64,000 nucleotides of DNA from a virus (Duplodnaviria > Caudoviricetes). Made by a program: the position numbers and the translations under genes. The stretch is from IMG/VR virus record IMGVR_UViG_3300049988_000375, positions 1-64,000 of that record; one strand, written 5' to 3'. Position 1 is the stretch's first letter. Every line of letters starts with the position of its first letter. Below the pieces are notes generated by a model, which saw only the letters and a program-made list of their open reading frames with translations, searched no databases and was not told the origin of the DNA. Positions 13,672 through 62,859 of the stretch are shown piece after piece.

Positions 13672-13746
13672 GCTGCGATTGTCTGATTATTCCCCTTACT
13701 GATACTGCGAATGACTGGTTAATATCAGTAATTCGCAGTATCTTGC
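13672..13746 (+). promoter_or_regulatory. Three-box promoter A
   Basis: nCTGCRA boxes at 13672 and 13704; TCGCAG abutting TATCTTGC (13739). Confidence 0.8.
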
Positions 13747-13786
13747 GTTTGCGACGAGCCCGCCGCGTCACCCTCAATCCAACCGA

Positions 13787-14788
13787 ATGACTGCCGACAA
13801 CTGGAAACCACTTGCTAACTACCTTTTGGTAGCCGTGCCTGAACGCCTCGAGAAGCCCAAAGGCCCGCGCTCCCCCGAGGGTCTGGGCATTACGCTCATT
13901 TCAGGCGAGGACAACATGCGCGAGCTGCAAGCGGCTATTCGGGCGGGCGGTGAGATTCGCATTGAAACCGCCTCTGACACGTCGGACGCGAACAAGGTGC
14001 GGGTAGGGCAGGTGCTGCAAGTGCCACCCCGCCTCGATAGCTCAATGGTGCTGTGCGCGGGTGGGCCGAAGGGCTACCGCACCCTAGCCGACGTGACGCC
14101 CGAGGTGGAAGTGGGCGACACCGTACATCTCGACCCCTCGTGCCTGATTGACGAAAACGAAATCATGCCCGGCGTTTACCGCGTGCCGTATTCGGCGGTT
14201 ATCTGTGTGATTACCCCCGTGCGTAACAGTTTCATTAACAACGTTCCAATAGATAATTTCCTGACTCCCATCGGCGGCTACGCGCTGCTTTCCCGCGTGT
14301 GGGCCGACGACGTGACCGATGAAACGGACGCCGAGGGCGGGCTAGTGAAGTGCCGCAAGAAGGACGGGCTGGTGGTGGAAACCGCTGTGCCGCCGCTGGC
14401 TGACGAGGGCGTGGTGGCGTGGGTGGGAACGCCCCTGCGCGGCACCCTGCCTGAGATTCAGCCCGGCCAGCGGGTGGTTATCAAGCCCGGCCTGGCGCTG
14501 GTGGAGAGGATAGCGGGGGCCGAGTACCTCTGCGTGCGACAGGATTATGTACTGGCGGTGCGTGAGCCCGACTTTGCTAAAGTGCCCTCAGAGTGGACGA
14601 GGGCTGATACGGATGCTTTCGAGCTTGTCGCGCCCACGTTGCCAGCGGATAAATTTATCCACTTTGAGACTGGCGCGCAATCGCTACGGGCTAACCTCAG
14701 CGACATTAAGCGCGAAGTGGATTTTCGCGCCAGCCACTTTCGTCCCGCTCACCAAATCCCCGCCCATCATCCAGCCTACAACGCCTAA
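13787..14788 (+). CDS. Tandem GroES-like co-chaperonin
   Basis: Domain 1 KPLANYLLV...EVEVGDTV; domain 2 TPIGGYALL...GVVAWVG...IQPGQRVV...IAGAEYLCVRQDYVLAV. Confidence 0.8.
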   Translation: MTADNWKPLANYLLVAVPERLEKPKGPRSPEGLGITLISGEDNMRELQAAIRAGGEIRIETASDTSDANKVRVGQVLQVPPRLDSSMVLCAGGPKGYRTLADVTPEVEVGDTVHLDPSCLIDENEIMPGVYRVPYSAVICVITPVRNSFINNVPIDNFLTPIGGYALLSRVWADDVTDETDAEGGLVKCRKKDGLVVETAVPPLADEGVVAWVGTPLRGTLPEIQPGQRVVIKPGLALVERIAGAEYLCVRQDYVLAVREPDFAKVPSEWTRADTDAFELVAPTLPADKFIHFETGAQSLRANLSDIKREVDFRASHFRPAHQIPAHHPAYNA

Positions 14789-15543
14789 TGGCTAACGCAC
14801 CCCAATACGCGCACCAACTCCGCTACCGGGTTCAGGACTTGAATCCGGGCGAGACGGTACTGGAAAAGTTTTCCGACCTCGCGGTGCATGAGACGCTGGT
14901 GACGCACGGGTTCGGGCCTGACAAAGACCCGTTCCTGCGCTACTGCATCTACCTGAGTGAAGGCAGCGGCCTGCACGCGGCTATACCCGAGTGGGCTGAC
15001 CGCAAGAAAGAAGCCCTGCGCCTAGCTGGCGTGAATCCCGCGCACCCGCGCTACCAACTGGTGCTTGAAATGAAGGATGAGCCTGTGCAGGAAATGCGCT
15101 GGGCTTGGCTCAAGGCATTCAACTCGCGCAAGTTTCGGGCTTACGTAGCTGGTTGCGAGGCATTCGACCAGAATTGCCAAAAGGTAGAAGCGCCAATTGT
15201 TGACAATATGGGCAGCCTGCCAAAGCTAGAGATAATCTTCTATGTGGATGGCAAAGAGAAGCCGAAAGAAGCCCAAGAGCGCACTAATGAGACGTTGGAC
15301 CAAATAGCAAACATTATCGCCAGCACTAAACGCGACTTAAAAGCTGATGCTGAGCAGCGTGCATATAGCTTGCGCAACGAGTTATTTGAGGGATTGCCAT
15401 TGCAGGATGCCATGCTTGCCAAGATGGAGTCTGAGCTATTTATGGGCGATGATGAGTTGAAGCGATTGGCTACTGAGCGTGCTAAGCCACGAGCTGAGGG
15501 CGGCAGTATCGAGGCCAAGATTATGAACCGCAAGCAGAGGTAG
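14788..15543 (+). CDS. Hypothetical protein upstream of TerL
   Basis: 251 aa, TAATG-coupled; packaging role inferred from position only. Confidence 0.65.
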   Translation: MANAPQYAHQLRYRVQDLNPGETVLEKFSDLAVHETLVTHGFGPDKDPFLRYCIYLSEGSGLHAAIPEWADRKKEALRLAGVNPAHPRYQLVLEMKDEPVQEMRWAWLKAFNSRKFRAYVAGCEAFDQNCQKVEAPIVDNMGSLPKLEIIFYVDGKEKPKEAQERTNETLDQIANIIASTKRDLKADAEQRAYSLRNELFEGLPLQDAMLAKMESELFMGDDELKRLATERAKPRAEGGSIEAKIMNRKQR

Positions 15544-15545
15544 CC

Positions 15546-15734
15546 ATGAATTTACTGGGGCCTGATAAGCTAGTACACATTGCCCACCCGGTGGCTTTGT
15601 CGGGTTTAGATACGCTATGCGGCCACATGGCAGGGAATACTATCCGGGAGGCCAATAAGCCCGCCGACTGCCCTGAGTGCTTAGAAGTGGTGCGTTTTTG
15701 CAAGAAAATTAGGGTAAAGGGAGTTTGGAAGTAA
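15546..15734 (+). CDS. Small Cys/His hypothetical protein
   Basis: 62 aa; H...LCG...CPEC. Confidence 0.5.
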   Translation: MNLLGPDKLVHIAHPVALSGLDTLCGHMAGNTIREANKPADCPECLEVVRFCKKIRVKGVWK

Positions 15735-18162: not shown

Positions 18163-18217
18163 TTCTACCTACTCTACCTACCCCAACCAGTGCAGGACGT
18201 TCACCTGAACCCCTGCC

Positions 18218-20659: not shown

Positions 20660-20663
20660 CGCC

Positions 20664-20738
20664 GCTGCGATTGTCTGAAATAAAGTTGGCGAAATACTGC
20701 AATTGTCTTGTTATAATCGGACAATTGCAGTAGTTTTG
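20664..20738 (+). promoter_or_regulatory. Three-box promoter B
   Basis: Boxes at 20664 and 20696; TTGCAG abutting TAGTTTTG (20731); 13-bp inverted repeat 20695-20707/20720-20732. Confidence 0.8.
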
Positions 20739-20742
20739 CTTT

Positions 20743-21081: not shown

Positions 21082-21096
21082 TCCCCAACCAAATAA

Positions 21097-21609: not shown

Positions 21610-21628
21610 AAGACCAGCACGCACTCGC

Positions 21629-21657
21629 AAGCCCCTGCCTAACGGTGGGGGCTTTTT
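21629..21657. terminator. Terminator between convergent genes
   Basis: aagcccc / ggggctt stem with T-run. Confidence 0.75.
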
Positions 21658-21661
21658 GCAT

Positions 21662-21835
21662 TTAGCCCAGCAGCCCGTCAGCCTCCAAGCGCCCGCGCAG
21701 CACGGCCTTAATAATGGAGGCGGGCTTGTCGAGGCCCAGCTTCTTGCCGAGCTTCATCATGGCGGCGTATTCGGCGCTGTTCAGGCTTACGTCGGAACGC
21801 AGGCGGGCGGCGCGGGCGGTAGTGGGTTGCAGCAT
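21662..21835 (-). CDS. Small ribbon-helix-helix-like protein (absent from ORF track)
   Basis: 57 aa MLQPTTARAARLRSDVSLNSAEYAAMMKLGKKLGLDKPASIIKAVLRGRLEADGLLG, GC3-rich. Confidence 0.65.
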   Translation of the reverse strand: MLQPTTARAARLRSDVSLNSAEYAAMMKLGKKLGLDKPASIIKAVLRGRLEADGLLG

Positions 21836-21933: not shown

Positions 21934-23085
21934 ATGTCGGATACCCCCGAAGTAATTCCCCAAGCGCCCGAGCCGGCCGCGTTCCCCACCGGGGAGGCGC
22001 TACTTGCCGCGTTTGACAGCGCCAAGCCTTACCAGCCTACCCCCGCGCCTGAGCCGTTCGCCGCGCCGGTAGCGGCTACCCCGGCCGCCCCCGCAGACCC
22101 CACCCCTGCGGCTACCCCGGCCGCCGCGCCGGTTGTAGCGCCCGAGCCCACTCCGGCGCCGGCTGCACCCGACTACGCGGCCTACCTGAAAGAAACCTTT
22201 GGGGTAGATGCCCCCGAGGCGCTAAAGGAGAAGCTGACCCTGGCCGAGCAGGCCGAAGCCCTCAAGGCCAACCAGCGCACGGCGCAGGACGTGGCCTTTG
22301 AGAAGCTACTGGCTGACCCCAACGCCGCCACGGCTTTCGTGCGGCTGCAAACTACTGACTTCAAGACCCTGCCCGCCCGCGAGTTGCTGGCTGCTGAGTA
22401 CGCCCACAAACACCCCGAACTGCCCGCCGAATTGGCGCGCTTGGAGGCCGATTTGGAGTACAACGCCAAGTATGCTGCTGCGGAGTTTGAGGATGCCGAA
22501 GACCCCGAGACCAAGACCGCAAAGCTGCGCCTGGACTACGCGACGAAATCGGCCCTCGCCACAATGGACAAGGCCAAAGAAGATGCCAGGCAAAGCGTGC
22601 TGGCTGCTGCCAAACCCGCCGAGGCCGAGGGGCCGACGCCGGAGCAAGTAGCAGCCGAAGAAGCCCGCGTAGCTGCCTGGCAAAGTGGAGTGGAGGCGAT
22701 TACCGCCGCCCCCGCCGTGGATTTGGCCTACACGGTGGACGGGCAGCAAATCAAACTCAGCTTCGACAACAAAGCGCCTGGCTTTCAGGAAGCCCTCACC
22801 GACCCCTACGGGTGGCTCTATAAGCAAATCTGCCCCACTGGCGATAACTCTAAGCCCAATATCAGCCGATTGGCTGAAATCGTGGCTCTGGCTACCCAAA
22901 CGGACACCGCGCTTAAAAACACGCTGGCCGTAGGCAAATCCTCGGTGGGTGCGGTGCTGCCGCTCACAGAGGCCGTGAACCCGGTTCCTGGCGCGCCGCA
23001 AGCCCCGCTCGCCGGGGGCAAAACTATCGAGCAAGCCATCCTGGAAGCGTCTCAAGCCAGCCGCTCGCGTGGCGCCCAATACTAA
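21934..23085 (+). CDS. Capsid scaffolding-like protein
   Basis: Pro/Ala-rich N-terminus, acidic helical body, directly upstream of MCP. Confidence 0.65.
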   Translation: MSDTPEVIPQAPEPAAFPTGEALLAAFDSAKPYQPTPAPEPFAAPVAATPAAPADPTPAATPAAAPVVAPEPTPAPAAPDYAAYLKETFGVDAPEALKEKLTLAEQAEALKANQRTAQDVAFEKLLADPNAATAFVRLQTTDFKTLPARELLAAEYAHKHPELPAELARLEADLEYNAKYAAAEFEDAEDPETKTAKLRLDYATKSALATMDKAKEDARQSVLAAAKPAEAEGPTPEQVAAEEARVAAWQSGVEAITAAPAVDLAYTVDGQQIKLSFDNKAPGFQEALTDPYGWLYKQICPTGDNSKPNISRLAEIVALATQTDTALKNTLAVGKSSVGAVLPLTEAVNPVPGAPQAPLAGGKTIEQAILEASQASRSRGAQY

Positions 23086-23113
23086 CCTCTCGCCCAAACA
23101 CCTCTCTCCCTAA

Positions 23114-24577
23114 ATGGCTTTTACTACCAATGCGGCGCTAAACCAAAGCACCGCTATTTCTATCCCGCAGGCGGACACCGCCTACCTGGATATTGACTTC
23201 TTCATCAAGCGCCCCGACCTGCTGGGTAAGGTGTTTGACTCGTGGGACAATAAGGGCTTCGTGGATATGCTGGCACTGACCGGCCGCGAAGAACTGATTA
23301 CCAGCGAGACGTTCTCGAACTACGAAAGTGGCTTGCTGCCGCGCTCGGTGTCGTTCGCTACCGTTACCTCGGCTACGGCTGGTGGGGCTGTAGTAACGCT
23401 CACGGGCGACAGCATGACGACCGTAAACAGCGCCACCGGCCCTGTGTCCCGCTCGCCGCTCAAGGAGAACGACATTATCAAGTTGCCCGGCCGCCAGGAA
23501 GCGTTCGTGCAAATCAAGTCGAGCGTGAACGGTGGGGCCTCAGGTGCTGCCACGACCTACACGCTGGTTAAGAGCGATAACAGCTCGGACGCCGCCTTTG
23601 ACCTCGGCGCCTACCTCACGTCGGTTGCCGGCTCGGGCCAGCGCTTCGCCATCACCTCGGCTGCCTTCTCGGAGGGCTCGTACGAAGCCCTGGAAGGCGT
23701 AGAAACCCCGATGGTGCGCTACACCGGCCAGCTCCAAATCTGCAAGACTCACTCGGAGATTACGGGCTCGGCCGCTGGCGACCGCTTCGAGATTCCGCTG
23801 GCGAACAGCAACGGCTCGAACTACTGGTACAGCAAGCAGCGCATCGAGCAGGGCCTGAACCACCGCATGAACGAGGGCCTGCAAATGCTCACCGGCAAAG
23901 GCGGCAACTTCATCGACAAGAACGGCAAAAAGGTCAAGACTTCGATGGGTCTGGAAGGCTTCGTGCGCAGCTACGGCAACGTGTACGACTACGCCAGCAC
24001 CGGCTTTACGGCCGCCGACCTCGACGCGCTGACCGCCCGCATCAAGACCATCATGGGCGGGACGGAGTACCAGTGGATTATGGGCTCGGACCTCTACCGC
24101 CAGGTGGCTTCGGTTATCCGCACCCTGCCCGGCCTGCAAGGCGGTGCCATTCGCTACGACATGTTCGGCAAGTCGGACGCCTCGGCCAAAGCCCTCGACC
24201 TCGGCTTTAACTCCATCATCTGGAACGGCATCACCCTCCACTTGCAGGAGAGCCCCGTGTACAACCACCCCGAGCTGCTTGGCCTGGCTGGCTACAACTA
24301 CACCAAGCAAGGCTTCCTGATTCCTGGCGCCAAAACCCGCATCACGGGTTCGGACAACGGGGTGAGCACGCCGCTGATGGGCAACATGGGCGCCGACGCC
24401 GACTCGCTGCGGATTCGCTATAAGCAGGACATTAACGGCCGCTCGCGCCGCTACTTCTCCTACGACCGCGACATTACCACGACCGGCTTCGACACGACCA
24501 AGCACGAAATCATCTCGCATTGCGGCCTGCAAATGGTTGGCCTACGCCGCTTCATCCTGGTTCAAATGGGCGCCTAG
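23114..24577 (+). CDS. Major capsid protein
   Basis: 487 aa, strongest codon bias, after scaffold and before a strong terminator; GLEGFVRSYGNV and HPELLG segments. Confidence 0.82.
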   Translation: MAFTTNAALNQSTAISIPQADTAYLDIDFFIKRPDLLGKVFDSWDNKGFVDMLALTGREELITSETFSNYESGLLPRSVSFATVTSATAGGAVVTLTGDSMTTVNSATGPVSRSPLKENDIIKLPGRQEAFVQIKSSVNGGASGAATTYTLVKSDNSSDAAFDLGAYLTSVAGSGQRFAITSAAFSEGSYEALEGVETPMVRYTGQLQICKTHSEITGSAAGDRFEIPLANSNGSNYWYSKQRIEQGLNHRMNEGLQMLTGKGGNFIDKNGKKVKTSMGLEGFVRSYGNVYDYASTGFTAADLDALTARIKTIMGGTEYQWIMGSDLYRQVASVIRTLPGLQGGAIRYDMFGKSDASAKALDLGFNSIIWNGITLHLQESPVYNHPELLGLAGYNYTKQGFLIPGAKTRITGSDNGVSTPLMGNMGADADSLRIRYKQDINGRSRRYFSYDRDITTTGFDTTKHEIISHCGLQMVGLRRFILVQMGA

Positions 24578-24675: not shown

Positions 24676-24750
24676 GCTGCGATTGTCTGAAATTTAGTTA
24701 CCCATTCCCTGCGAAACGCAGGGAATTATCGGGAATTTGCAGTAACTTGC
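24676..24750 (+). promoter_or_regulatory. Three-box promoter C
   Basis: Boxes at 24676 and 24708; TTGCAG abutting TAACTTGC (24743). Confidence 0.8.
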
Positions 24751-24777
24751 AAAAAGCAAACCTTTCCCCAACCGCCC

Positions 24778-36540: not shown

Positions 36541-36615
36541 GCTGCGATTGTCCGAAAATAAAAGAGTGATTCGCTGCGATTGTCTTTATTATTTAAGAAA
36601 TATGCAGTACATTTG
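36541..36615 (+). promoter_or_regulatory. Three-box promoter D
   Basis: GCTGCGATTGTC at 36541 and 36573; ATGCAG abutting TACATTTG (36608). Confidence 0.8.
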
Positions 36616-40745: not shown

Positions 40746-40851
40746 ACGGAGCGGGTTGCTGCGCGTGAATATACTGCCCCCTTCTTCGTACCTTGCAAAA
40801 AGCAACACGCAGTAACTTATGGCAGAAGGAATACCCGGCTACAACCACTGC

Positions 40852-42059: not shown

Positions 42060-42227
42060 ATGAAAAATCCTAAGCAGAATCGCGACTTGCAACTAAACAT
42101 CAAGGCCACCAAGGCAGAGAAGGATATGCTAGAGGCAGTGGCTAAGGCACGAGGCTTAAGCAGTTCTATGTTGGTAAGGATGCTGGTAGCAGACGAGGCG
42201 CGGCGGTTGGGTATTCAGCCGACTTAG
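42060..42227 (+). CDS. Small ribbon-helix-helix-like protein (absent from ORF track)
   Basis: 55 aa MKNPKQNRDLQLNIKATKAEKDMLEAVAKARGLSSSMLVRMLVADEARRLGIQPT; TATCTTTG at 42048. Confidence 0.75.
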   Translation: MKNPKQNRDLQLNIKATKAEKDMLEAVAKARGLSSSMLVRMLVADEARRLGIQPT

Positions 42228-42269: not shown

Positions 42270-44048
42270 ATGCCCACCATTCCAGGCGAGAATCTTGTTA
42301 CCAACGGCCCCAGAACCGGAGCCGCTTACGTGCTCGGGCGCACCACGCCGGATGCGCTCTCCATTCTCATGCAGGGCCAGCGGCAGCGTGATTACGCCGC
42401 CCGTCAGCAGGCTATTGCCAAGCAGAAGGCCGACGAGCTGGCCGCCAAAGACCTGAACGACAAGCTAAAGTACGAGGTGGACGGCAGCCACATATTCGGG
42501 GATACCCTGCAAAATCAGGTGTATAATCCATTGAACGATAAACTGGTGGGCGCCTTCAAGGCCAACCCAACCGACGCGTTCGCCCGCACCGCCGCCACCC
42601 GCCCACTGCTCGAAGGGGCGCAGAGCGAAACCCAGCAGAGCAAGCGGAAAACAGCCTTCATTGATGAGAATATCCGCAAGTTCCAATCGGATAGCAAGCT
42701 CTACAACCCCAAGTACGCCACCGAGAGCCTGGTAAAGAGCCTGCGCGACGAGGCTACCGGCCTAAACCGCCTGCCCTCGCAGTTCGATGAGGAAGCGTGG
42801 CTGGGTGCGTTGCAGGGCGATGCGGGCCTCTACAACGAGCCGGAGGTGATTCGCCGGGCCACGTCGGGGCTGCTGCCCACGGTGTCGCAGAAAATCAGCG
42901 AGGCGGGCACTATCGGCGGGCAGCACAGCTCGGACCTGGTGCGCGGCAAGCTCATTGCCATGCAGAACGGCAAGCCTATTCTCAACGCCGATGGCAGCCC
43001 GAAGCTCAACCTCGGCGCCGACCTGCAAGGGCTGCTCGAAGCCGACCCGCTGTTTAAACTCAAGGTCGATGCCCGCGAGGCGGCTTACAACGCCAAGCGC
43101 GAAGCCGACCCTACCCTGCCGCAGGTGAGCCGGCGCGGCCACATCGCGCAGATGGTCGGCCCCCTCGCGTTTTACGACACCGCTCACGACGAGGGCTTGA
43201 ACCGCCTGCCCCCGCAACCTAAAAGTGCCGGCAAGGAGAAAGGCTTTGTGCCCGACGATGGCTCACTGGTGGAGGGCGACTACTCGGCTACGCTGCCCGC
43301 CACCGCCCCCGCCTACGCGGGCCTGCGCGACGACAAGGGTACCCCGGTTGGCTACGACTTCTCGCAGGCTGCCGGCCCCCAAAAGACGTTTCAGCATCTA
43401 GGCCAGGGCAAGCAGCCTATCCTGAAAACGGCCAGTGGCGACTTGAAAGAGAAGCACACTGACGCTATCAAAATCAACAGCTACTACACGGAGGATGGCA
43501 AGGGCAATTTCTCGGAGGTGACCAACAACGTCACCCCGCAGGCGGGCGTGTTCGGTCCCTCGACGGTGGTAGCGGTGGATGTGAAAACGAATAAACCACT
43601 GTTCAGTAAGTCGCGGGAGGAACAGAAGCAGCTTATTGCCAGCGGAGCCGCCCGCCCGCAGCTATTCATCGACCTGGCCGCCGACAAGAACGAGAAGTTC
43701 GCCGCCGACAAGTCGCGGGTGCTGCGTGAACTGACCCAGGCCAATAACGACCCCGGCAACTTCAATAAGAAATCGCCGGCCGAATTGGAGGACCAGGCGA
43801 CCAAGATTGTGAGCAAGGGTGTCACCCGCCACTTCATCCCCTACAACGCGCAGAACGCGCAGGCTATCGACCCCGTGACGGGCGGCCACTACCGCGCTGC
43901 CCTGAAAACGATGCTGCGCAGCTTCAAGCAGGGTGCCGCGCCCGCCCCCAAGGCGAAGGCCAACCCCCTCGGCTTCGGCGCGCCCGCCGCCAGCAAACCC
44001 TCGACCGCCCCCGCCGCTAAACCCAAAGCCAACCCACTTGGATTCTAA
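42270..44048 (+). CDS. Internal virion/cargo protein
   Basis: 592 aa helical protein before a giant ORF; TATCTTGC box at 42243. Confidence 0.6.
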   Translation: MPTIPGENLVTNGPRTGAAYVLGRTTPDALSILMQGQRQRDYAARQQAIAKQKADELAAKDLNDKLKYEVDGSHIFGDTLQNQVYNPLNDKLVGAFKANPTDAFARTAATRPLLEGAQSETQQSKRKTAFIDENIRKFQSDSKLYNPKYATESLVKSLRDEATGLNRLPSQFDEEAWLGALQGDAGLYNEPEVIRRATSGLLPTVSQKISEAGTIGGQHSSDLVRGKLIAMQNGKPILNADGSPKLNLGADLQGLLEADPLFKLKVDAREAAYNAKREADPTLPQVSRRGHIAQMVGPLAFYDTAHDEGLNRLPPQPKSAGKEKGFVPDDGSLVEGDYSATLPATAPAYAGLRDDKGTPVGYDFSQAAGPQKTFQHLGQGKQPILKTASGDLKEKHTDAIKINSYYTEDGKGNFSEVTNNVTPQAGVFGPSTVVAVDVKTNKPLFSKSREEQKQLIASGAARPQLFIDLAADKNEKFAADKSRVLRELTQANNDPGNFNKKSPAELEDQATKIVSKGVTRHFIPYNAQNAQAIDPVTGGHYRAALKTMLRSFKQGAAPAPKAKANPLGFGAPAASKPSTAPAAKPKANPLGF

Positions 44049-47000
44049 CGCCCAGCCCACAGAAGAACTCGCCCCCGAGCAAACGGCGCCCACCCCGCCC
44101 ACTTCACGCCTGCAAACGGCCTACGGGCTGCTGAAAAAGCAGGACGTGAAGGTGCCCGATTCCTACGAGGAATTTGAGCGCGGCATGGTGGATAAGCCCG
44201 AGCGGCTAAAGGCGCTCTACGACCACTTCAAAAAAAGCGACATTCAGGTGCCCGACGACTACGGCCAGTTCGAGGCCGGTATGCTGGAAGGGGTCAAAAA
44301 AAAAGCCCATTCCGCGCCTGGTGGGCTGCCTTCTGCGGCTACTGCGCCGACTTCTTCACCGGCCGTAAGTGGGCAGGGGACTAACCCTGCCCAAATGCAG
44401 GCGGCCCTGGGTATTGACCCGGCCGACGTAGCGCAGCCTGCACCCGAGCCCACCCCCGACGTAGCAATGGCGGCCGAGGCGGCCGGGCTCGAATCCGCGC
44501 AGCCCTTTGCCCCCGGCTCCGCTGCCGCCCCGCTGGCGCAGAACCTGCCGAACCTTGCCACGGGCGAGGCCGCCGTGCAGGGCGGGCGCTTGCCGGCCAC
44601 CGAAGAAATGGACTACCTCAACGGCCTGCCGGCCGCGGAGGATAAGGGCGTGCGCCCCGATGGCAGCGAGTACACTCCCACGCCCTACGGCAAGGAGCTG
44701 GTGGCGATTCCCAACGACTACACCGGGGCCGTGCCAGCGGGCGCGTTCCCGCTGAACCTCTCGGGCGAAGGCGACCGCACGCAGTACTTCTACCGCGACA
44801 AGGCAAAGACCGTCGATGGCAAAGAGCAATCCTACGGCGACGCGCTGAAAGGCAAACTCAAGAACGCGCTCTACAGCATGGGGCAGGGTGTGGTGGAAGG
44901 CACGCAGGCTGCCGTCAACACGGTTGGTATGGCGAGCACCGCCGCGAGCGGGCTGCCTTTGGCTGCTGCCCCGCGCACCGAACTCGGCACCGAGGCCAGC
45001 GCCGCCATTGAGCGCAACAAAACCAAGATTGCGCCCTACTACAACCAGTCGTTTCGCCAACACAAGAATTGGGAGACGCTGGGCATGACCGCCGCCGACT
45101 ACGCCCCGATGGTGATTGCCCAAGTAGCGCAGACGCTCGCCCCCGAACTGCGCGCCCCGGCCGCACTGCAAAAGGCGCTGGCCTTCGCCTCGACCACGGC
45201 CTTCGACGCCGACATGTACCACGCGGCCCGTGAGCACGCCAAGCAGGTGTTCCCCAACGACCCGGCCAAGGCCGACCTCTACACGCTCTTTGAGGGCACG
45301 CTGACCGTGGCGGGCTTCAAGGTGGGCAGCAAACTTATGACGGAGGTAGGCGACAAGCTGGCCTACAAACTCTCGCCGTTTTCGCTCAAGCGCGCCGTGG
45401 CAACCGGGGCCGCCGAACGCCTGAGCCAGCTAGAAGCGCAGCTAGGCCGCCGTGCTACCGATGCCGAGTACCAGCAGGTGCTGCACGAGAGCTTGCGCGC
45501 CGCCCTGCCCAAGCTCGCGCAGCTTCCCAAGGAGTCTTTCCAGCAAGCGGGCACCTTCGGCGGGGTGGCAGCGGCCCAAACTATCGGCAACCAGATAGTC
45601 GCCCCCGCGCTCGGCGGGCAAGCCGACGACCTCGGTCCCGATGGCATGGGCTTCTTCTCGAAAGTAGGCGAGGGGATGCTGGCGGGCGCCGGCATGGGTG
45701 CGCTGACGGGCGCCGTAGGGGCGGTGCTGCCCGCGGGCACCCGTCCCGCGCCAGCTCAGGAGCCGATAGCAGGCGAGCCCGAGTTGGCGCCGACGCCAGA
45801 AGCCCCGGCTGAGCTGACACCCAGCCAAGAGGTGCCGACTGCTGAGGTGGCGCCGCCCACGGCGCCTGACCCTTCGGTGGTGGATGTGACCGACCAGGTA
45901 CCCGAGCCCATTCAGGCCGTAGCGCCCGAAGAAGCCTTGCCAATCACGGAGCCCGTGGCGAGTGAACAAGTGCCCGAGTCGGCTTTGGCTGAACCCGAGG
46001 GTGGGCAGGGCAATACCGTGGAAGCTGGTCCCGAGTTGGGGCAGAAGGAACGACAGCACCCGTTGCGCTACGATGAGCAAACCCAGGCTGGCTTGCGGCC
46101 CGAGGAACGTTACTATACCCCGCGAGCCCGCATTCAAAACGCGGAAGAAGCCAACGCCTTCATTGACGAGCACGGGCTAGAAAATGCCTATAAATTCGTG
46201 ATGGCGGGCGAACGTGACACCGCCGCTGGCGAGCCAATTCACGCGGCCGTGCTAGACGAGGTGCGCGGGCAAACCCGTCAGCGCCTGCTTGACGCATCCT
46301 TGGCCGCTGATAAAGTAGGCGATACGGCCGAGTCCACCCGGCTACTTCAACAGTCGCTTGACGTGTTGGGCAAGCGCGCTATTGCCCGCACCGAAACTGC
46401 GCAAGCACTGGCCCAGGTCGAGGGCGACATTACAAAGAACCCTGACAAGGCGCTAGACGACTATGCGGCTAGCATCCCTGCCACCAAGGAGAAGGTGCGG
46501 AAGCAAAACAGACAGAAAGCCCAAGCAGCAGATAAGGAGGCCACCACTAAGCGCAAGGCTAAGGTGGATGCCGCGCTTGCCGACGCCGACGTGCAGGACG
46601 CCGCCGAGCGGGTGACCGAATGGGCAGTAACAGGCCAGAAACCTGCCAAGAAGGGCGGCGCGAAGCCCGCCGAATCCACCCCTGCTGACCCGCCGACGTG
46701 GGGCAGCAAAAACAAGCTCTTTACCAAGGAGTCGGCGGCCAAAGCCAAGGCCGCCCTCAAGAATCTGGGCCTTTCCACTATTATCCCCCCCGAGCTAATC
46801 CACTTCATGGGCTACCACATGGAGGCGGGGGCCCGCTCGTTTGCCGATGTAAGCAAGCGCGTAGTGCGCGATTTGGGCGCGAAGGTGAAGCCCCTGCTAA
46901 AGGAGGCCTACGAGGCGGCAAAAAAGGAGTTGGTTGCTAAGGGTGACTCGGGCAAAGGCTTTGACGGGCCGGACGCGGTGGAGGCCGCACTTCGGGCGAG

Positions 47001-50000
47001 CCTAGCCGACGACTTGGCTGGCCGCATTGTGTCAGAGGTGAAGCCTAAAGTGCCAGGTGTATTCGACCCAGCACAGGAGCTATTGGAGACGCTGACCAAG
47101 AAAGTACGGGAAACCCTGCCACCCAATAAGCCAAAGCCTAAAGATGCGCGGGAGGCTATTGTTCATGCTTTGCAAAACAAGGCTGAGTATGCCGACGTGT
47201 TCGAGCAGAGCAAGGCCGAAGTAGAGGCGCGCATTGAAAAGATGAGCGCGACGGACGCGGAAAAGGCTAAGATGCGCGAGCAGCTACGCGCCTATCAGGC
47301 TGACACAATTGGTGACCCCTTCGCAGCGCGCCAAGTGGATGCCACCATGCGCCAGGCCATGAAAGAATTGGGTCTTAAGCTGGAAAAGCTCGTGCGTCAA
47401 CACGCTGATGTGCGCGAGGCAGGCCGCCGCTCGTTAGTGGATGCGCTGGTAGAGGGTGCCGGGCTAACCCCAGCGCAGGCGGCTGAGTATGCCGAGGCCG
47501 TGAGCAATCGCTACGCTGTCCAAACCCAAGCCAAGGCACAGTCGCTAGCCGGCCGGATTCTCGCTCCCGCCAAAGCCAAGCTGCCGGGCGGCAAGATTCG
47601 CTCGGTAGTTGATAAGCTCACCGAGGCGCTGGATATTTCCGACGCCACCCATACTGGCCCCGACTCCGACACGGTTAGCCCAGCCGGCGCGCTGCTGGAA
47701 AAGATGGCCGGCATTCCCGAGGTGACGGTGGAGGATGTGAAGGCTTTCCGCAAACTAGCCGAGCGGGTGCGCAAGGCTAGTCAGCCCAAAGGGGTTACCA
47801 TCAAAGGCAAGCAGGTGCAGGTAATCGACACCAAAGCCCAACAGGCGGCCGTAGCCGACCTGCTGCGCTATGGGGCGGCCAAGATGGGTAAGGTGAACTG
47901 GTGGGCTAAAACTCGCGCCATGCAGTATGCTTTCCGCCTGTCGGGCCTCGACACCCAAGGGCGCAACCTCAAGGCGAACGTACTGCACACCGTTGCCGAG
48001 CAAGGGCTGATTACACCCCTCTACAACGCCATCAAAAATCGCAGTGTTTATGGTGCGTCGGGTGGCGCTACTGGCTATGCAAAAGGGCAGGGCCAAGGTG
48101 TGGCTGAGGCTGCCTATACTATAAAAACCGGCTACACGGGCGAAAAGCAGGACAAGTTTGGCGACAACTCGCCGCTAGAAACGATGGGCGGCTTTTGGGG
48201 CAAGTGGAAGTACGTGAGCCGGGCTATGATTGCCGGCGACCAACTCACCAGTATCCCCACTGAAAACTCGCGCACGTTTGAGGTGGCAGTGCAGAAGGGT
48301 TTTGAGCTAGCCCGAGAGAAAGCCGCCGCTAGTGGACAAAAGCTCAAGGGACGTGCGCTACGCGACGCCGCATGGGCCGAGGCTAACGAAATCCTTTATA
48401 ATACCAAGGAGGCACTGGCTGACATTGACTACATCTTGGAGCAGGAGGGCTTGCCCGAAATTACCGCCGCCCAAGTTCGAGCCGGGCAACATACAGTAGG
48501 CGAGTACAACCAGCGTGCGGTGCAGCGCAACGTGCGCAAGGCTGACCTGCTGCGCCAAGCACGGGCAGCCGAAAACCCCGACCTAGTAAAAGACGCTCAA
48601 GATTATGCTCGCATTCAGACGCTGAACGGCGACGTGCCCGGCCAGATAGGGCGGGTGCTGGATGCGGCAGCTTCAATTGGCAGAGATAATCCAGTAGCTG
48701 ATGCGGTGTTGACCAACGTGATGCCGTTTCTAAAAATACCGGCCAACTCGTTGCTGCGCAAGCTGGAATGGGGTGGCGGGCCGGTGACGTTGCTAAAGGC
48801 TGCCTTGGGCCGCACCTCCCTTACGATGGCAGTAAAAGAGGGCAGCAAGTATTCGCGGGAGCTTACGCCCGACGAGCGCGGCAAACTGGCCCTGCGCGGA
48901 GCGCTTAGCACGGTGGCGTGGGCGGGGCTATATGGCTTGATTCACAACGGCACCATTTCTATTTCTGGCCCAGCCTCTGGCAAGAATGACGAGGACTTGT
49001 TGCAGCCGCCTATGACCATAAAGATTGGCGACAGCGTGTACGGCTATAAGGATACCAACATCGAATATCCACTGGTGATTGCCGCCGCCCTGCAAGCGCA
49101 TCTGCGTAAAAAAACCAAGCAGGGCGGCGACCCCAGCCTAGCCCAGCTTGCTAGTGTGGCTGCCCTGCACTCGGCCGCCTATATGGTTACTACAGGCCCC
49201 ATTAACGGCCCAGCCGACATGGGCAACGTACTGATTCAGGCCAACCAAGGCAACTACGCCTCGGCAGGGAATTATTTTAAACGCTTCTTGGTGACGAGTG
49301 CAAAAACTGGCACGCTGCCTGCTGTATTGATTCAGGGGATGCAGGCGGCCCGCGATTATACAGCCACCTATAAGGAGTGGGCCAGTGCTGGGCAGCAAAG
49401 CACTGATTGGCAGGGTGCGGCTGTGCGGGAGCGCAAGTCTAACTCGCTGGCCGACGAGCTAAAGGTGTCGTTTTTCGGTAGTATCCCATACTTCGACATT
49501 GGCGAAGATAAAATCAACTTCGCCGGACAACCCATCGTGATAAATCGCAGTGGTGAAACTATTTGGCAGGATGAGCAAACAAAGCGGCTCGCACAAACAC
49601 TGGTTGCCCTCGGCCTTATGCCGCCCCGCCAAGCCCCCACTGACGATAAGCTGGTCTTGTTTGACCCGGTGAGCGGTGACCGCGTAACGCCTCTATCTGA
49701 TGCCGAGTTTAAGCAGTACGCGGTGTTGCGTGGGCAGGCGTTCGTTGAGTATCTGACGCGCCAGCCAGAGGGCGAGGGGGGCAAGACGCTCCTGTCGCAA
49801 ATCAAGGAAGCCCCAACCCGCGCCATCGCAGAGCGGCTCCGCGATAAGGCTCTCGATGCGGCCACTACCAATGCCTTGCGCACAATTGAGCAGCAGCGCG
49901 GGGGCGGGGTGACCTTCAAGTTGTCTAAGCAATTGAAGCAGGCGAGCGATGCGGCAGGCTTTCAGCAAGCGAAGCAGCAATTGGATGAAAAGCTCGCCAC

Positions 50001-50007
50001 GGAATAG
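44038..50007 (+). CDS. Giant internal virion/ejection protein (~1990 aa)
   Basis: Frame open from 43933; TTG 44038 is a plausible start; Ala-rich helical; no RNAP catalytic motif seen. Confidence 0.7.
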   Translation: MDSNAQPTEELAPEQTAPTPPTSRLQTAYGLLKKQDVKVPDSYEEFERGMVDKPERLKALYDHFKKSDIQVPDDYGQFEAGMLEGVKKKAHSAPGGLPSAATAPTSSPAVSGQGTNPAQMQAALGIDPADVAQPAPEPTPDVAMAAEAAGLESAQPFAPGSAAAPLAQNLPNLATGEAAVQGGRLPATEEMDYLNGLPAAEDKGVRPDGSEYTPTPYGKELVAIPNDYTGAVPAGAFPLNLSGEGDRTQYFYRDKAKTVDGKEQSYGDALKGKLKNALYSMGQGVVEGTQAAVNTVGMASTAASGLPLAAAPRTELGTEASAAIERNKTKIAPYYNQSFRQHKNWETLGMTAADYAPMVIAQVAQTLAPELRAPAALQKALAFASTTAFDADMYHAAREHAKQVFPNDPAKADLYTLFEGTLTVAGFKVGSKLMTEVGDKLAYKLSPFSLKRAVATGAAERLSQLEAQLGRRATDAEYQQVLHESLRAALPKLAQLPKESFQQAGTFGGVAAAQTIGNQIVAPALGGQADDLGPDGMGFFSKVGEGMLAGAGMGALTGAVGAVLPAGTRPAPAQEPIAGEPELAPTPEAPAELTPSQEVPTAEVAPPTAPDPSVVDVTDQVPEPIQAVAPEEALPITEPVASEQVPESALAEPEGGQGNTVEAGPELGQKERQHPLRYDEQTQAGLRPEERYYTPRARIQNAEEANAFIDEHGLENAYKFVMAGERDTAAGEPIHAAVLDEVRGQTRQRLLDASLAADKVGDTAESTRLLQQSLDVLGKRAIARTETAQALAQVEGDITKNPDKALDDYAASIPATKEKVRKQNRQKAQAADKEATTKRKAKVDAALADADVQDAAERVTEWAVTGQKPAKKGGAKPAESTPADPPTWGSKNKLFTKESAAKAKAALKNLGLSTIIPPELIHFMGYHMEAGARSFADVSKRVVRDLGAKVKPLLKEAYEAAKKELVAKGDSGKGFDGPDAVEAALRASLADDLAGRIVSEVKPKVPGVFDPAQELLETLTKKVRETLPPNKPKPKDAREAIVHALQNKAEYADVFEQSKAEVEARIEKMSATDAEKAKMREQLRAYQADTIGDPFAARQVDATMRQAMKELGLKLEKLVRQHADVREAGRRSLVDALVEGAGLTPAQAAEYAEAVSNRYAVQTQAKAQSLAGRILAPAKAKLPGGKIRSVVDKLTEALDISDATHTGPDSDTVSPAGALLEKMAGIPEVTVEDVKAFRKLAERVRKASQPKGVTIKGKQVQVIDTKAQQAAVADLLRYGAAKMGKVNWWAKTRAMQYAFRLSGLDTQGRNLKANVLHTVAEQGLITPLYNAIKNRSVYGASGGATGYAKGQGQGVAEAAYTIKTGYTGEKQDKFGDNSPLETMGGFWGKWKYVSRAMIAGDQLTSIPTENSRTFEVAVQKGFELAREKAAASGQKLKGRALRDAAWAEANEILYNTKEALADIDYILEQEGLPEITAAQVRAGQHTVGEYNQRAVQRNVRKADLLRQARAAENPDLVKDAQDYARIQTLNGDVPGQIGRVLDAAASIGRDNPVADAVLTNVMPFLKIPANSLLRKLEWGGGPVTLLKAALGRTSLTMAVKEGSKYSRELTPDERGKLALRGALSTVAWAGLYGLIHNGTISISGPASGKNDEDLLQPPMTIKIGDSVYGYKDTNIEYPLVIAAALQAHLRKKTKQGGDPSLAQLASVAALHSAAYMVTTGPINGPADMGNVLIQANQGNYASAGNYFKRFLVTSAKTGTLPAVLIQGMQAARDYTATYKEWASAGQQSTDWQGAAVRERKSNSLADELKVSFFGSIPYFDIGEDKINFAGQPIVINRSGETIWQDEQTKRLAQTLVALGLMPPRQAPTDDKLVLFDPVSGDRVTPLSDAEFKQYAVLRGQAFVEYLTRQPEGEGGKTLLSQIKEAPTRAIAERLRDKALDAATTNALRTIEQQRGGGVTFKLSKQLKQASDAAGFQQAKQQLDEKLATE

Positions 50008-50018: not shown

Positions 50019-50807
50019 TTAAACCTTGCGAGCGCGAGGTGGCACAAACGCCACCTCGCCCTTCACTCGTTGATGTGCGCTATAAAATTTGGCGAGTGTC
50101 GTGCCCTTGGGCAAAAGCAACATTATCTGCGGTTGTGAAAGGACGGTTAGTTTGTGGCCCAACTCACGGAATAACTTGATTTTCTCAGCCGACCTATCCG
50201 ATAAATGCCCCTTTACCTCAACCCACTCGTCGGTTTCGGGCAAATAAAAGTCGGGCGTATATCGCAGGGATGGGGTGAGGCAAAACAACTTAGGCTCATA
50301 CATGAACGCTATGCCTGATGCCTGCAAATGCTCAAGATAGATTAACTCAAAGCCAGAGCGAAGCTGCACGGGCTGGTCGCCAATGGTCACGCGCCAACGC
50401 GACTGGCTAGCCCCTTTTGAGTTACGCCCACAGGTTAATGCCCCCGTACGGCTTGATGTTTCATTTTTCCAGCACCCGCACGATTTGGTATTGCCACTGC
50501 GAACGTCTCTAGGCAACGCCATTATCTCGCCGCCACATTCACAGCGAAACTTGCGCATGGTCCCGCTCGCCATATTGTCGATGCACACTAGTCGATTGGC
50601 AGCTAAGCCGGTAAAATCTTCGCGCTTCAAGGCCCTAATCGCATTGCCATGCTCACAGCCGCAACTCTTTTGGCGGCCATTGGGCAGCTTATTCCTCGCT
50701 ATCAGCTTCTCGTTGCCGCAGGTGCAGCGGCAAAGACACTTGGGCCGAGTGTCGCCAATAACAGTAAGTCGCCCAAAGGTCATGCCTAGCAGATTGATTC
50801 GTTCCAT
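50019..50807 (-). CDS. Free-standing PD-(D/E)XK endonuclease, paralogue of 40885..41976
   Basis: FGRLTV...CRCTCGN...SCGC x2 plus LRSGFE...YTPDFYLP...VEVKG. Confidence 0.85.
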   Translation of the reverse strand: MERINLLGMTFGRLTVIGDTRPKCLCRCTCGNEKLIARNKLPNGRQKSCGCEHGNAIRALKREDFTGLAANRLVCIDNMASGTMRKFRCECGGEIMALPRDVRSGNTKSCGCWKNETSSRTGALTCGRNSKGASQSRWRVTIGDQPVQLRSGFELIYLEHLQASGIAFMYEPKLFCLTPSLRYTPDFYLPETDEWVEVKGHLSDRSAEKIKLFRELGHKLTVLSQPQIMLLLPKGTTLAKFYSAHQRVKGEVAFVPPRARKV

Positions 50808-50906: not shown

Positions 50907-50981
50907 CCTGCAATTTCCCGAGTGTCGCGCCTGCTATTGCTGCGAATGTCTGTGATTGTTCGGGAATTTGCAGTAACTTGC
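50907..50981 (+). promoter_or_regulatory. Three-box promoter E
   Basis: Boxes at 50907 and 50939; TAACTTGC at 50974; 34 nt (50960-50993) identical to promoter C (24729-24762). Confidence 0.8.
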
Positions 50982-51014
50982 AAAAAGCAAACCCCCTTCC
51001 GACCCCCGTTCTGC

Positions 51015-51320
51015 ATGACTGCTTCCTACGCCCCCGATACCGCCATTCGAGAATACCAGGCCAGCCTCGCAAAGCCCGATGAGACCCCGGCTGCCCTGCT
51101 CGATACCTACGTGCTGCAAGATGAGCCGGCGAACTGGAACCGGGTGCTGAACATGGGGGCCGGCAAGGGTGGTTTGCGCGTGTACGCGACGCCTCACCTG
51201 CAAACGGCCAAGTCCTGGCTACTGAACCCGGTGGGCCACAAGCCGCACGGCGACACCATCTACACGGTCAGCGAGCAGCTCGACCGCGTGAGCGACGAAC
51301 TCCAAAAACGCCCCGCCTAG
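51015..51320 (+). CDS. Hypothetical protein
   Basis: 101 aa, first gene after promoter E. Confidence 0.65.
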   Translation: MTASYAPDTAIREYQASLAKPDETPAALLDTYVLQDEPANWNRVLNMGAGKGGLRVYATPHLQTAKSWLLNPVGHKPHGDTIYTVSEQLDRVSDELQKRPA

Positions 51321-57385: not shown

Positions 57386-57395
57386 TTAGCTAAGC

Positions 57396-60478: not shown

Positions 60479-60683
60479 CCCATGCTACCCCTACGCGAAA
60501 CGTGGCCCCGCCTGCTCTTGTTCTGCTTAGCGGCGGCCCTGGCCTATTGGGGCACTCGTTTGCTGCCCGCCTCTTTTCTGCCCTAGCTGCCCGCCGCTCC
60601 CATGCGCCCCCCGAAAAAGACCCCGCCCACCGTGGCCCGGCTCACGCCGGATGAACAGATAGCTAACCCCCTTTTTCTGCACT

Positions 60684-61163: not shown

Positions 61164-61555
61164 CCCTAGCCAACGCTATCGCCTTCCTATCGCGAAACTT
61201 GCCCCGAATCCTTTCTGGTTGCGCCATCGTGGTGGTAATCGCCCTAGTCGCCACCTGCCACTACGCGAGCAAGGTGAACGAGGCCCTAGACACCAACCCG
61301 CCGCTGCCCAAGAAGGAGGTAGCCCGCATTGTAGCCAAGCAGCAGGCGGCTGAGAAGGCGGCGGCCGTGTACCAGCAGGTGGCTAAGGTGAAGGTGCGCG
61401 AGGCGGATAGCCTCCACCGGGTTGTTCTCTCCAACGTCAAACAGGCTGACAGCCTACGCCATGAATCTCAAGCCCTACCCGCTAGCACTGCTGGCCCTCT
61501 TAGCCGCATCCAGCGCACACTCGCAAACTACCAAAGCCCCGACACGGCCCGATAG
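61160..61555 (+). CDS. Inner-membrane spanin-like protein
   Basis: N-terminal TM then helical periplasmic region; overlaps the next gene. Confidence 0.55.
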   Translation: MTLANAIAFLSRNLPRILSGCAIVVVIALVATCHYASKVNEALDTNPPLPKKEVARIVAKQQAAEKAAAVYQQVAKVKVREADSLHRVVLSNVKQADSLRHESQALPASTAGPLSRIQRTLANYQSPDTAR

Positions 61556-61877
61556 CACGGTCTGCATCCCCGGTGCCGCCGCCCGCCGCATCGACGCCGA
61601 CCTGCAACGTTACCGGCTGGGCATCGCGGAGAACCACCGCCTGCGTGATGCCGTGCAGGCCAGCACAAGCGAGACGCGGGCCGTGCGCCACGCCCTCGCG
61701 GCCAAGGATAGCGTGGTAGCCTCGGTGGGCGACCAGCTCGTGGGCGAGCGGATGCTGCGCTCGCACGCGGAAGGGGAGGGGGCAGTGTGGAAGGCCAAAG
61801 CTAAAAAACGCTGGTGGATTATTGTAGGCGAAACCGCCCTAGTTATCGCCGGTGTCGTACTGGCCGGCAGCCGCTAA
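61461..61877 (+). CDS. Second spanin-like component
   Basis: Signal peptide, coiled coil, C-terminal hydrophobic segment; overlaps the previous gene in another frame. Confidence 0.5.
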   Translation: MNLKPYPLALLALLAASSAHSQTTKAPTRPDSTVCIPGAAARRIDADLQRYRLGIAENHRLRDAVQASTSETRAVRHALAAKDSVVASVGDQLVGERMLRSHAEGEGAVWKAKAKKRWWIIVGETALVIAGVVLAGSR

Positions 61878-62245
61878 TGAGTTTGAAGAAAATACCCGAA
61901 TCCGAAAAGCCCATCCTGCGGCAGTTCTTCCAGAACGCCAGGGGTAGGGCTGACCTAAAGCAGCCAGCCGGCTTTCTAACCCTGCTCACGCTGCTCTACT
62001 GCGCCGCTATCAGCGCCACCATCTCAGACGCCCTTGTGTTCACGCTCGGCGCCGTGATTGTGCTCTGGTGGGTAGGCGACACGACCGAGGCCGTGGCGGT
62101 GCTAAAGGCGCTCTATGGTGGCTACCAGCAGAAGGCGACCACCGAGATTAACAACACCAGCCAAGGCACCCAATCAGTCACCACGCCCACGGGTGACAGC
62201 ACCACAATTAATCAGCAAGTCCCCACCGAACCCTCGACCGAATAA
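61877..62245 (+). CDS. Holin-like membrane protein
   Basis: Two TM segments, directly upstream of the endolysin. Confidence 0.55.
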   Translation: MSLKKIPESEKPILRQFFQNARGRADLKQPAGFLTLLTLLYCAAISATISDALVFTLGAVIVLWWVGDTTEAVAVLKALYGGYQQKATTEINNTSQGTQSVTTPTGDSTTINQQVPTEPSTE

Positions 62246-62781
62246 TGCTCCCTACTCAATTCGCCTTCCTCGCCAACGAGCCCGGCCCCGTCGTGCTGCG
62301 CGAAGCCCTCAAAGACCTTGGCCTGCACGAAGTGCCCGGCCCCGGCAACAGCCCCCGCATCTTGGAAATGGCGCGGCAGGTGGGCGCCGACTCCTACTAT
62401 AAGCAGGACGCCACGCCTTGGTGCGCGCTGGCAATGAGCGCGTGGGTAAAGGCGGCGGGCTTTAAGCTGCCCTACGACCCGCTGGCGGCCCTCAATTGGG
62501 CCAAATTCGGCAATCCTGTAGCTCCCGGCGAGGCTAGCCTGGGCGACATACTGGTGAAGGCCCGCGTGGGCGGCGGCCACGTCACGCTTTACGTAGGCGA
62601 GACAGCCACCCATTACGCGTGCTTAGGCGGCAATCAGGCGAACTCGGTGTGCATCGCGTGGTTTCCCAAGGCGTCATTCAGCGCTATTCGCCGCTGCCCT
62701 TGGAAGGTTGCTCAGCCGGCCAACGTGCGGCCCATCAAGTTTAACAAGGCGGGCGTGTACGTGCCAGTAAGCGAGGCATAG
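62245..62781 (+). CDS. Endolysin, TIGR02594/CHAP-NlpC/P60-like
   Basis: EVPG..NSPRI, TPWCA, GGGHV.LY, LGGNQ. Confidence 0.88.
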   Translation: MLPTQFAFLANEPGPVVLREALKDLGLHEVPGPGNSPRILEMARQVGADSYYKQDATPWCALAMSAWVKAAGFKLPYDPLAALNWAKFGNPVAPGEASLGDILVKARVGGGHVTLYVGETATHYACLGGNQANSVCIAWFPKASFSAIRRCPWKVAQPANVRPIKFNKAGVYVPVSEA

Positions 62782-62784
62782 CCC

Positions 62785-62859
62785 GCTGCGATTGTCTGAA
62801 ATTTAGTCGATAAAGTACTGCGATTTACTTTTTTTAGTAAGTAAATCGCAGTATCTTTG
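62785..62859 (+). promoter_or_regulatory. Three-box promoter F
   Basis: Boxes at 62785 and 62817; TCGCAG abutting TATCTTTG (62852); 15-bp inverted repeat 62816-62830/62839-62853. Confidence 0.8.

Follow-up and report, generated by a model that had tools for sequence, protein, structure and literature searches.

A temperate phage of Hymenobacter-type bacteria, present in the provirus record IMGVR_UViG_3300049988_000375, has a real, strongly constrained and phage-private promoter cassette that occurs in eight copies in its genome. The record comprises 81,353 base pairs (bp) with 59.6% G+C, and its first 64,000 nucleotides (nt) are the window analysed here; positions marked as genome positions are those of the whole record. 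The cassette is 75 bp long and contains three copies of one asymmetric 14-bp box, CTGCRAWTKNCYGA, in direct, direct and inverted orientation. Box 1 is followed by an 18-nt spacer (mostly beginning AAATWWAGT), box 2, a 6-nt spacer and the inverted box 3, which abuts the -7 box. A first-pass annotation of the window had described six such sites with 6-mer boxes at an unvarying distance. All six sets of coordinates for box 1, box 2 and the -7 box are exact, and the spacing of 32 nt from box 1 to box 2 and of 35 nt from box 2 to the -7 box is the same in every copy. The 6-mers are present, but they form the start of a 14-bp word that emerges when the 24 boxes are aligned in one orientation, and the six sites grow to eight with two minus-strand copies beyond the window.

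The copies were located with an 84-nt weight matrix derived from the six window sites and run on the whole genome. The six sites score 88.6-105.7 bits, and the best genome position outside the cassettes scores 19.7 bits. Cassette A lies at 13672..13746 (+), with boxes at 13673-13686, 13705-13718 and 13725-13738 (inverted) and the -7 box TATCTTGC at 13739-13746; its box 1 starts 4 nt past the stop codon of a deoxynucleoside monophosphate (dNMP)-kinase-like gene, and the next start codon is the ATG at 13787. Cassette B, at 20664..20738 (+), is directly 3' of the portal stop codon and has boxes at 20665-20678, 20697-20710 and 20717-20730 and the -7 box TAGTTTTG at 20731-20738. Cassette C, at 24676..24750 (+), stands between the major head protein gene and the ATG at 24778 (boxes 24677-24690, 24709-24722 and 24729-24742; -7 box TAACTTGC at 24743-24750). 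For cassette D, at 36541..36615 (+), the boxes are 36542-36555, 36574-36587 and 36594-36607 and the -7 box is TACATTTG at 36608-36615. Cassette E, at 50907..50981 (+), is divergent from an HNH endonuclease gene and precedes a first start codon, ATG, at 51015; it has boxes at 50908-50921, 50940-50953 and 50960-50973 and again the -7 box TAACTTGC, at 50974-50981. The last copy in the window, cassette F at 62785..62859 (+), has boxes at 62786-62799, 62818-62831 and 62838-62851 and the -7 box TATCTTTG at 62852-62859. Outside the window, box 1 of cassette G is at genome 74114 (-) and that of cassette H at genome 69300 (-), with scores of 84.5 and 73.2 bits, respectively. The pattern CTGCRA-N26-CTGCRA-N23-TYGCAGTA had 0 matches in IMG/VR and 0 matches in 274 Hymenobacteraceae genomes.

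Within the 14-bp box, CTGC at positions 1-4 and C at position 11 are conserved, one helical turn apart. The genome contains 24 copies of the box, which occur as triplets in promoters only; the top 22 genome-wide matches to a single-box matrix all lie within cassettes, and no isolated box was found. Mean pairwise identity among the eight cassettes is 0.92, 0.70 and 0.75 for boxes 1, 2 and 3, compared with 0.39 and 0.44 for the two spacers and 0.29-0.30 for the flanks, and there are no insertions or deletions across them. Because the boxes are kept while the spacers are at near-random identity and without any change in length, box sequence and box spacing both appear to be under selection. The cassettes do not look like simple recent duplicates. 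Shared segments were seen in two pairs: cassettes B and H (20664-20700 and genome 69300-69264(-)) have box 1 and 16 nt of the spacer in common, and cassettes C and E (24729-24762 and 50960-50993) are exactly identical in box 3, the -7 box and 12 nt of the leader. Such segments suggest that the cassettes are mosaics and that exchange among them has taken place.

Counted by the -7 numbering of Flavobacterium johnsoniae, the boxes occupy -78 to -65, -46 to -33 and -26 to -13, with centres at -71.5, -39.5 and -19.5; these positions, estimated from the -7 box, are accurate to about 2 bp. The centres are 32 and 20 bp apart, or about three and about two helical turns, a geometry that would place the three sites roughly on one face of the helix. 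The end of box 2 coincides with the place of a -33 element.

The eight cassettes have the character of promoters, as had been proposed for the six. All are intergenic and point in the same direction as the genes downstream, and in six of the eight the first start codon is 24-41 nt past the -7 box. The -7 box reads TAnnTTTG in four cassettes, TAnnTTGC in three and TAnnTTTA in one. In Bacteroidota the primary sigma factor is without region 1.1 and reads -33 and -7 elements, and the -7 element of F. johnsoniae consists of T-12, A-11, T-8 to T-6 and G-5 (PMC6847099). At a distance of 17-21 nt upstream of the -7 box, TTTG is missing from all eight cassettes; B shows TTG there, at 20 nt. By contrast, five other promoters of the phage have both the -33 TTTG and the -7 element: 7294..7325 (+), with the sequence TTTG-N20-TAGATTTG; 6510-6479(-); 5465-5435(-); 42012-41981(-); and genome 65241-65273(+), which is ahead of two transfer RNA (tRNA) genes (genome 65437-65591). 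The distinction between two promoter classes drawn in the first-pass annotation is borne out by this comparison.

The genes behind the cassettes belong to several functional groups. Cassette A precedes two genes of no assigned function, the large terminase gene and the portal gene; B precedes small genes past the portal gene; C, the head-tail genes; and D, a non-coding stretch and then accessory genes from 36982. The operon behind E runs from 51015 to a tail lysozyme-like gene at 62245-62781. Behind F is the gene for an Mre11/SbcD-type exonuclease, with the start codon GTG at 62890. Behind G are genes for a beta sliding clamp, an iteron-bearing winged-helix initiator and a primase/helicase-like protein, and behind H are small genes of no assigned function. 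The cassettes had been interpreted as a late switch. Virion and lysis units do lie behind them, but a purely late class does not agree with the clamp, initiator and primase/helicase-like genes of G and the exonuclease gene of F. The predicted regulon is better described as a delayed-early-plus-late class that includes replication, DNA metabolism, packaging, head, tail/lysis and accessory genes. No 14-bp box above background was found in the immunity region (genome 74.2-81.3 kb) or in the region of the early promoters (1-13.6 kb), and this absence fits a factor that acts downstream of the lysis-lysogeny switch.

The provirus codes for an integrase (genome 80028-81353), a CI-like repressor with a helix-turn-helix domain and an S24 peptidase domain (genome 79072-80025) and, on the strand opposite to the repressor gene, a LacI-type Cro-like protein of 71 amino acids (genome 78839-79054(-)). 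An ERF recombinase, a large terminase, a portal protein, a major head protein and several large virion proteins are also encoded. An Rfam scan of the phage detected two tRNAs and no other family. Named homologues of the portal protein are exclusively from Hymenobacter, and the closest portal proteins, with 62-67% identity, are found in Logan/ENA contigs only. Five prophage relatives were obtained, from Hymenobacter koreensis, Hymenobacter glacieicola and three more genomes of the same family. Because the named portal homologues come from Hymenobacter and the prophage relatives from Hymenobacter and other genomes of its family, the predicted host is a Hymenobacter-like member of the Bacteroidota. 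Queries of IMG/VR with the terminase, a portal profile, an exact 17-mer and the geometry pattern recovered no relative; the five IMG/VR matches to the exact 17-mer were rejected as chance, none of them having a cassette. Megablast against the INPHARED phage records gave no match.

The prophage relatives have elements of their own at the corresponding places. The cassette weight matrix had no match in distant prophage relatives, and their repeated elements were found by counting intergenic 9-mers, BLAST self-comparison being too insensitive for cassettes. The H. koreensis prophage, the relative G273 and the H. glacieicola prophage share an invariant TTYGTACCTTG, which consists of the -7 box TACCTTG and a fixed upstream extension; 15 of 26 sites have a second GTAC 46-47 nt upstream. 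In H. koreensis the GTAC-type arms are common to two divergent promoter pairs, and 11 of the 13 genome-wide matches to TTYGTACCTTG are within the prophage. In the relative G059 the element is a 23-bp palindrome, TCTATCT-N9-AGATAGA, which is 4-5 nt upstream of TATCTT-type boxes and at times tandem. The relatives' elements occupy the same junctions as the cassettes, namely downstream of the dNMP kinase gene and ahead of the E2/E3, exonuclease and initiator genes. At the junction that follows the major head gene, the site of cassette C, four of the relatives examined have an element of their own. Sequences that are unrelated, yet occupy the same positions and share a design in which an inverted element extends to the -7 box, argue for a phage-encoded regulator that would have co-evolved with its sites.

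On balance, it is moderately probable that the cassettes are promoters of the host RNA polymerase that depend on a phage activator. Host RNA polymerase with the primary sigma factor would read the cassettes, which lack a -33 box but have a -7 box of host type, usually a suboptimal one. A phage DNA-binding protein made from an early canonical promoter would occupy the three sites in a cooperative manner and bring in or stabilise RNA polymerase, with the middle site covering the place of the -33 contact, and eight operons would be switched on together. Activation is favoured because neither the immunity region nor any canonical early promoter contains a box, because the core elements of the cassettes are weaker than those of the canonical promoters of the phage, and because sites centred near -72 and -40 on one face are where activators typically bind. 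It is also favoured because immunity control of the activator gene would be enough to keep all eight operons silent in the lysogen, with no need for extra sites. The first-pass annotation had likewise proposed that a phage protein replaces the -33 contact; the phased, phage-specific sites without a -33 TTTG agree with that proposal, while the activating role is one that we infer. Taking the pieces separately, we infer from sequence each of protein binding, the phage origin of the protein, activation over repression and the identity of its gene. A more specific version is tentative and rather doubtful: a small phage protein of winged-helix (or XRE) type at about -72, -40 and -20 would stand in for the -33 contact, and protein and sites would co-evolve, giving each phage a private promoter code.

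Several observations weigh against activation of this kind. Box 3 (-26 to -13) and box 2 (-46 to -33) lie on core-promoter DNA, which is typical repressor territory. The missing -33 box is modest evidence for a need of activation, because the -33 element is weakly conserved in F. johnsoniae promoters (PMC6847099). The virion genes at 42270-50007, and perhaps those at 21934-24577, have no cassette directly ahead of them. Boxes 2 and 3 are more similar within a site than between sites (permutation p = 0.004), a feature not accounted for by simple protein binding. This likeness could come from local gene conversion or from a secondary function of a hairpin in read-through transcripts. In cassettes E and H it is box 1 and box 3 that are nearly or fully identical. 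Finally, no orthologue of the winged-helix candidate encoded at 7330-7767 was found in the H. glacieicola prophage despite the GTAC-type cassettes there.

With regard to the uncovered virion genes, the genes for proteins of 592 and 2024 amino acids come after gene 42060-42227 and a solitary TATCTTGC box, and the scaffold and head genes come after a divergent small gene and a hairpin at 21629-21654 that looks like a strong terminator. This hairpin is within the region fed by cassette B and is followed by the gene for a protein of 57 amino acids, 21662-21835(-), and by a palindrome immediately upstream of the scaffold gene (21934). The equivalent spot in two relatives has a phage-specific promoter directed away from that gene. 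A terminator scan gave no enrichment close to the cassettes. Two endonuclease genes, 40885-41976(-) and 50019-50807(-), lie on the opposite strand between virion operons and are 76% identical over 94 nt. One of the two has its own canonical promoter, and the pair look like inserted homing-type genes.

The boxes could instead be operators of a repressor, so that active promoters would be silenced in the lysogen, or delayed in infection, by occlusion of -46 to -13 together with looping to -72. We regard this as unlikely but still a serious rival, and it accounts for several features. Together, boxes 2 and 3 span the -33 position and extend across the spacer as far as the -7 box, and the regulon takes in every operon that needs silence in the lysogen, including that for replication. 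A weak -33 box is also a feature of some Bacteroidota promoters (PMC6847099). Multi-operator repressors, however, normally control their own region too, and the immunity region, the early promoters and their surroundings contain no box. In addition, the -7 box is suboptimal in four of the eight cassettes and the -33 box is absent from all of them, in contrast to the complete canonical promoters, and no second repressor gene was identified in the phage. Temperate phages with many dispersed operators are nevertheless known, with the L5 stoperators, the P1 C1 operators and the phiC31 inverted repeats as examples.

An improbable alternative to the phage activator is a phage-modified polymerase, in which a sigma-like factor or a sigma appropriator reads GCAGTAnnTT as an extended core and the upstream boxes serve as enhancers. 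GCAGTAnnTT was found 17 times against 1.5 expected, and solitary copies without boxes 1 and 2 occur before gene 10697 and at 40809. The first of these, GCAGTAACTT at 10656..10665 (+), combines the core of box 3 with a -7 box and is 31 nt before the ATG at 10697; GCAG may be part of the core promoter. The 11-nt core TTYGTACCTTG of the relatives is equally invariant. On the other hand, no sigma-70 region 2 domain was found in the six-frame translation of the phage, although divergent proteins like T4 gp55 could escape such searches, and the element ends in a normal host -7 box. The largest protein, of 2024 amino acids, has no match to solved structures or Pfam and no RNA polymerase-like match, and its nearest Atlas cluster has the PBECR3 nuclease family on 17% of its members and no polymerase family. 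It was rejected as a virion RNA polymerase for want of structural or Pfam support, with the limit that a divergent polymerase could be missed.

Slightly less probable still is the reading in which the repeat of boxes 2 and 3 works as a cruciform in the DNA or as a hairpin in read-through RNA, where, with the T-rich -7 box behind it, it could terminate transcription, insulate the operons from each other or mark a processing site. The perfect inverted repeats of boxes 2 and 3 reported for cassettes A, B and F were confirmed at 12, 13 and 15 bp. Free energies of -9.8 to -14.3 kcal/mol, at z-scores between -5 and -10, were obtained for DNA hairpins at cassettes A, B, F and G; each of these four comes after an upstream gene without a terminator, and the excess likeness of boxes 2 and 3 within a site points the same way. 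Cassettes D, E and H, however, fold no better than shuffled sequences, and C folds differently. H is in a read-through context without a hairpin, and the association (four of five against none of three) is not significant. Box 1 has no partner, and conservation tracks the sequence of the boxes and not their pairing. Cruciform promoters, which the first-pass annotation had offered as its second possibility, thus fail as a general mechanism, with stable hairpins at four of the eight cassettes.

That the boxes are sites of a host transcription factor coupling the lytic genes to a host signal is very improbable. In 61 sampled Hymenobacteraceae genomes, the actual host not among them, the 14-bp box shows no enrichment (0 exact matches and one-mismatch matches at background level), the three-box pattern is missing from the 274 genomes of the family, and related phages of the same host genus have unrelated boxes at the same junctions.

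Two phage proteins are the leading candidates for the regulator in the activation model. The first is a winged-helix protein of 145 amino acids encoded at 7330..7767 (+), the first gene behind the canonical early promoter 7294-7325. Its homologues are in Hymenobacter-type phage contigs only, and G273 and the H. koreensis prophage have orthologues at the matching place, while the one in G059 is marginal. The structure model, with a mean predicted local distance difference test score (pLDDT) of 79.5, is a winged helix, and its best structural match is to the DNA-binding domains of CRP/FNR, with a modest and generic Z of 7.2. The recognition helix reads VS(T/S)AQLS in the group of the present phage, as against SQH(F/L)SN in two GTAC-type relatives, and so it seems to co-vary with the cassette type, which fits the proposed role across the two groups compared. 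The second candidate is an XRE-type helix-turn-helix protein of 204 amino acids encoded at 1..615 (+), adjoining the left end of the prophage. Its residues 25-101 have block-mean pLDDT values of 65-90 (81-90 from residue 31), and the modelled domain resembles the XRE-type domains of C.BclI and P22 c2. This protein is the sole DNA-binding candidate in five of five relatives, each time beside the left end of the prophage.

Weaker candidates are the product of 42060-42227, which is ribbon-helix-helix-like by eye, the divergent 21662-21835(-) and the LacI-type protein. Two zinc-ribbon open reading frames were found, in the accessory operon and in the cassette-H operon respectively, and an Ogr-like zinc-finger activator was rejected, neither of the two being convincing as the primary activator. 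The one in the cassette-H operon, genome 67676-67882(-), codes for a protein of 68 amino acids with the form CxxC...CxxC and could be a later-acting regulator. A LexA/SOS box was rejected too: the motif in Hymenobacteraceae is CTAA-N5-TTAG (PMC8565304), which is unrelated to the 14-bp box.

Other repeated elements were observed near promoters of the phage. A perfect 13-bp palindrome, TTGCAAAAAGCAA, occurs at 24747-24759, 50978-50990 and 40793-40805. Its first two copies overlap the last letters of the -7 box in cassettes C and E, and the copy at 40793-40805 adjoins the partial GCAGTAACTT at 40809. A complement-type variant, TTGCTTTTTGCAA, is located at 41915-41927, beside gene 42060-42227. A second regulator, superimposed on the first at two virion promoters, may have this palindrome as its operator. 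Phased TTTGCTTTT-type repeats are present upstream of the -7 box in the canonical early promoters (5435-5530, 6479-6530 and 7250-7325), and the intergenic region of the CI and Cro genes contains the palindrome TTTTGCAAAA (genome 79097-79160). Words of the CCAACC type were found 5-15 nt ahead of start codons driven by cassettes, at 13770-13786, 24762-24777, genome 74015-74035(-) and genome 69203-69220(-), and the similar words AACCAACCC and ACCAACCAC are enriched in the intergenic DNA of the relatives. They may be a leader or translation signal in a phylum poor in Shine-Dalgarno sequences.

The cassettes are of wider interest because transcription activation in Bacteroidota is little understood, and they offer a compact and highly constrained test object, with eight natural variants in one genome and other cassette types at the same junctions in related prophages. 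Once identified, the binding protein would provide a portable, orthogonal pair of promoter and regulator for Bacteroidota genetics and would help in inferring the timing of genes in uncultivated phages from sequence alone. If the more specific version of the activation model is true, the cassettes would represent a novel mode of activation for an unusual Bacteroidota primary sigma factor, with the last site touching the -7 element. Protein and sites would then change together within a family of temperate Hymenobacter phages whose virion modules are crAss-like, each phage having its own code for the whole post-early programme. Literature searches found no phage activator and no middle or late promoter class for Bacteroidota. 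The claim of novelty made in the first-pass annotation stands in that searches for promoters of this kind in Bacteroidota or crAss-like phages gave none.

Among known systems, the late promoters of phage P1 are the nearest in design, a resemblance that appears to concern design only. They reportedly have an inverted repeat near -22. Like the cassettes, they are dispersed in many copies in a temperate phage, have a -10-type element and lack an upstream element. In both systems an inverted element lies in the spacer beside the -7 or -10 box; here it is box 3, inverted relative to box 2 and ending at the TA of the -7 box. The inverted repeat in P1 is single and 9 bp long, whereas the cassettes have three asymmetric 14-bp sites over 66 bp, with a direct repeat 32 bp upstream. 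In addition, the present promoters differ in having a Bacteroidota sigma factor with a -7 box as partner and in including replication genes in the regulon. The P1 late promoters are activated by Lpa (gp10), an early phage protein that is itself under immunity control (PMC8198154). In PHROG and Pfam scans of the early genes of the present phage, no match was annotated as a late-promoter activator; no search aimed at Lpa was made.

The resemblance to other phage systems is more partial. Mor and C of Mu, Ogr of P2 and Alt of TP901-1 are phage activators that bind repeats at about -80 to -30 of late promoters without a good upstream element, but they have no site abutting the -10 box, and their sequences, proteins and host phylum differ from those of the cassettes. 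The middle promoters of T4 are similar in that the upstream contact of sigma gives way to a phage box, whose distance from the host-type downstream element is fixed; they have one 9-bp MotA box at -30 and require the anti-sigma co-factor AsiA. No relatives of MotA or AsiA were seen in the phage, with no search aimed at them. The dispersed operators of temperate phages (the stoperators of L5 gp71, the C1 operators of P1 and the conserved inverted repeats of phiC31) also consist of asymmetric sites of 13-17 bp in many copies, here 24 of 14 bp. Those operators, however, are found at the repressor's own promoter as well, and stoperators lie within transcribed regions in one orientation, whereas the boxes occur as promoter triplets only. 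The CRP/FNR class I and class II promoters are comparable in that the centres at about -71.5 and -39.5 are near the classical positions and the 7330-7767 product has a CRP-like winged helix. CRP sites, in contrast, are 22-bp palindromes for one dimer, CRP promoters have no counterpart to the third site in the spacer, and the candidate is without the nucleotide-binding domain of CRP. Hairpin promoters of the N4 type differ in that a stable hairpin is not a feature of every cassette, A, B, F and G alone having one. Overall, the cassettes are distinct from the Mu, P2, TP901-1 and T4 systems in the fixed 66-bp geometry of three sites, the site touching the -7 box, the Bacteroidota sigma factor and the inclusion of replication genes.

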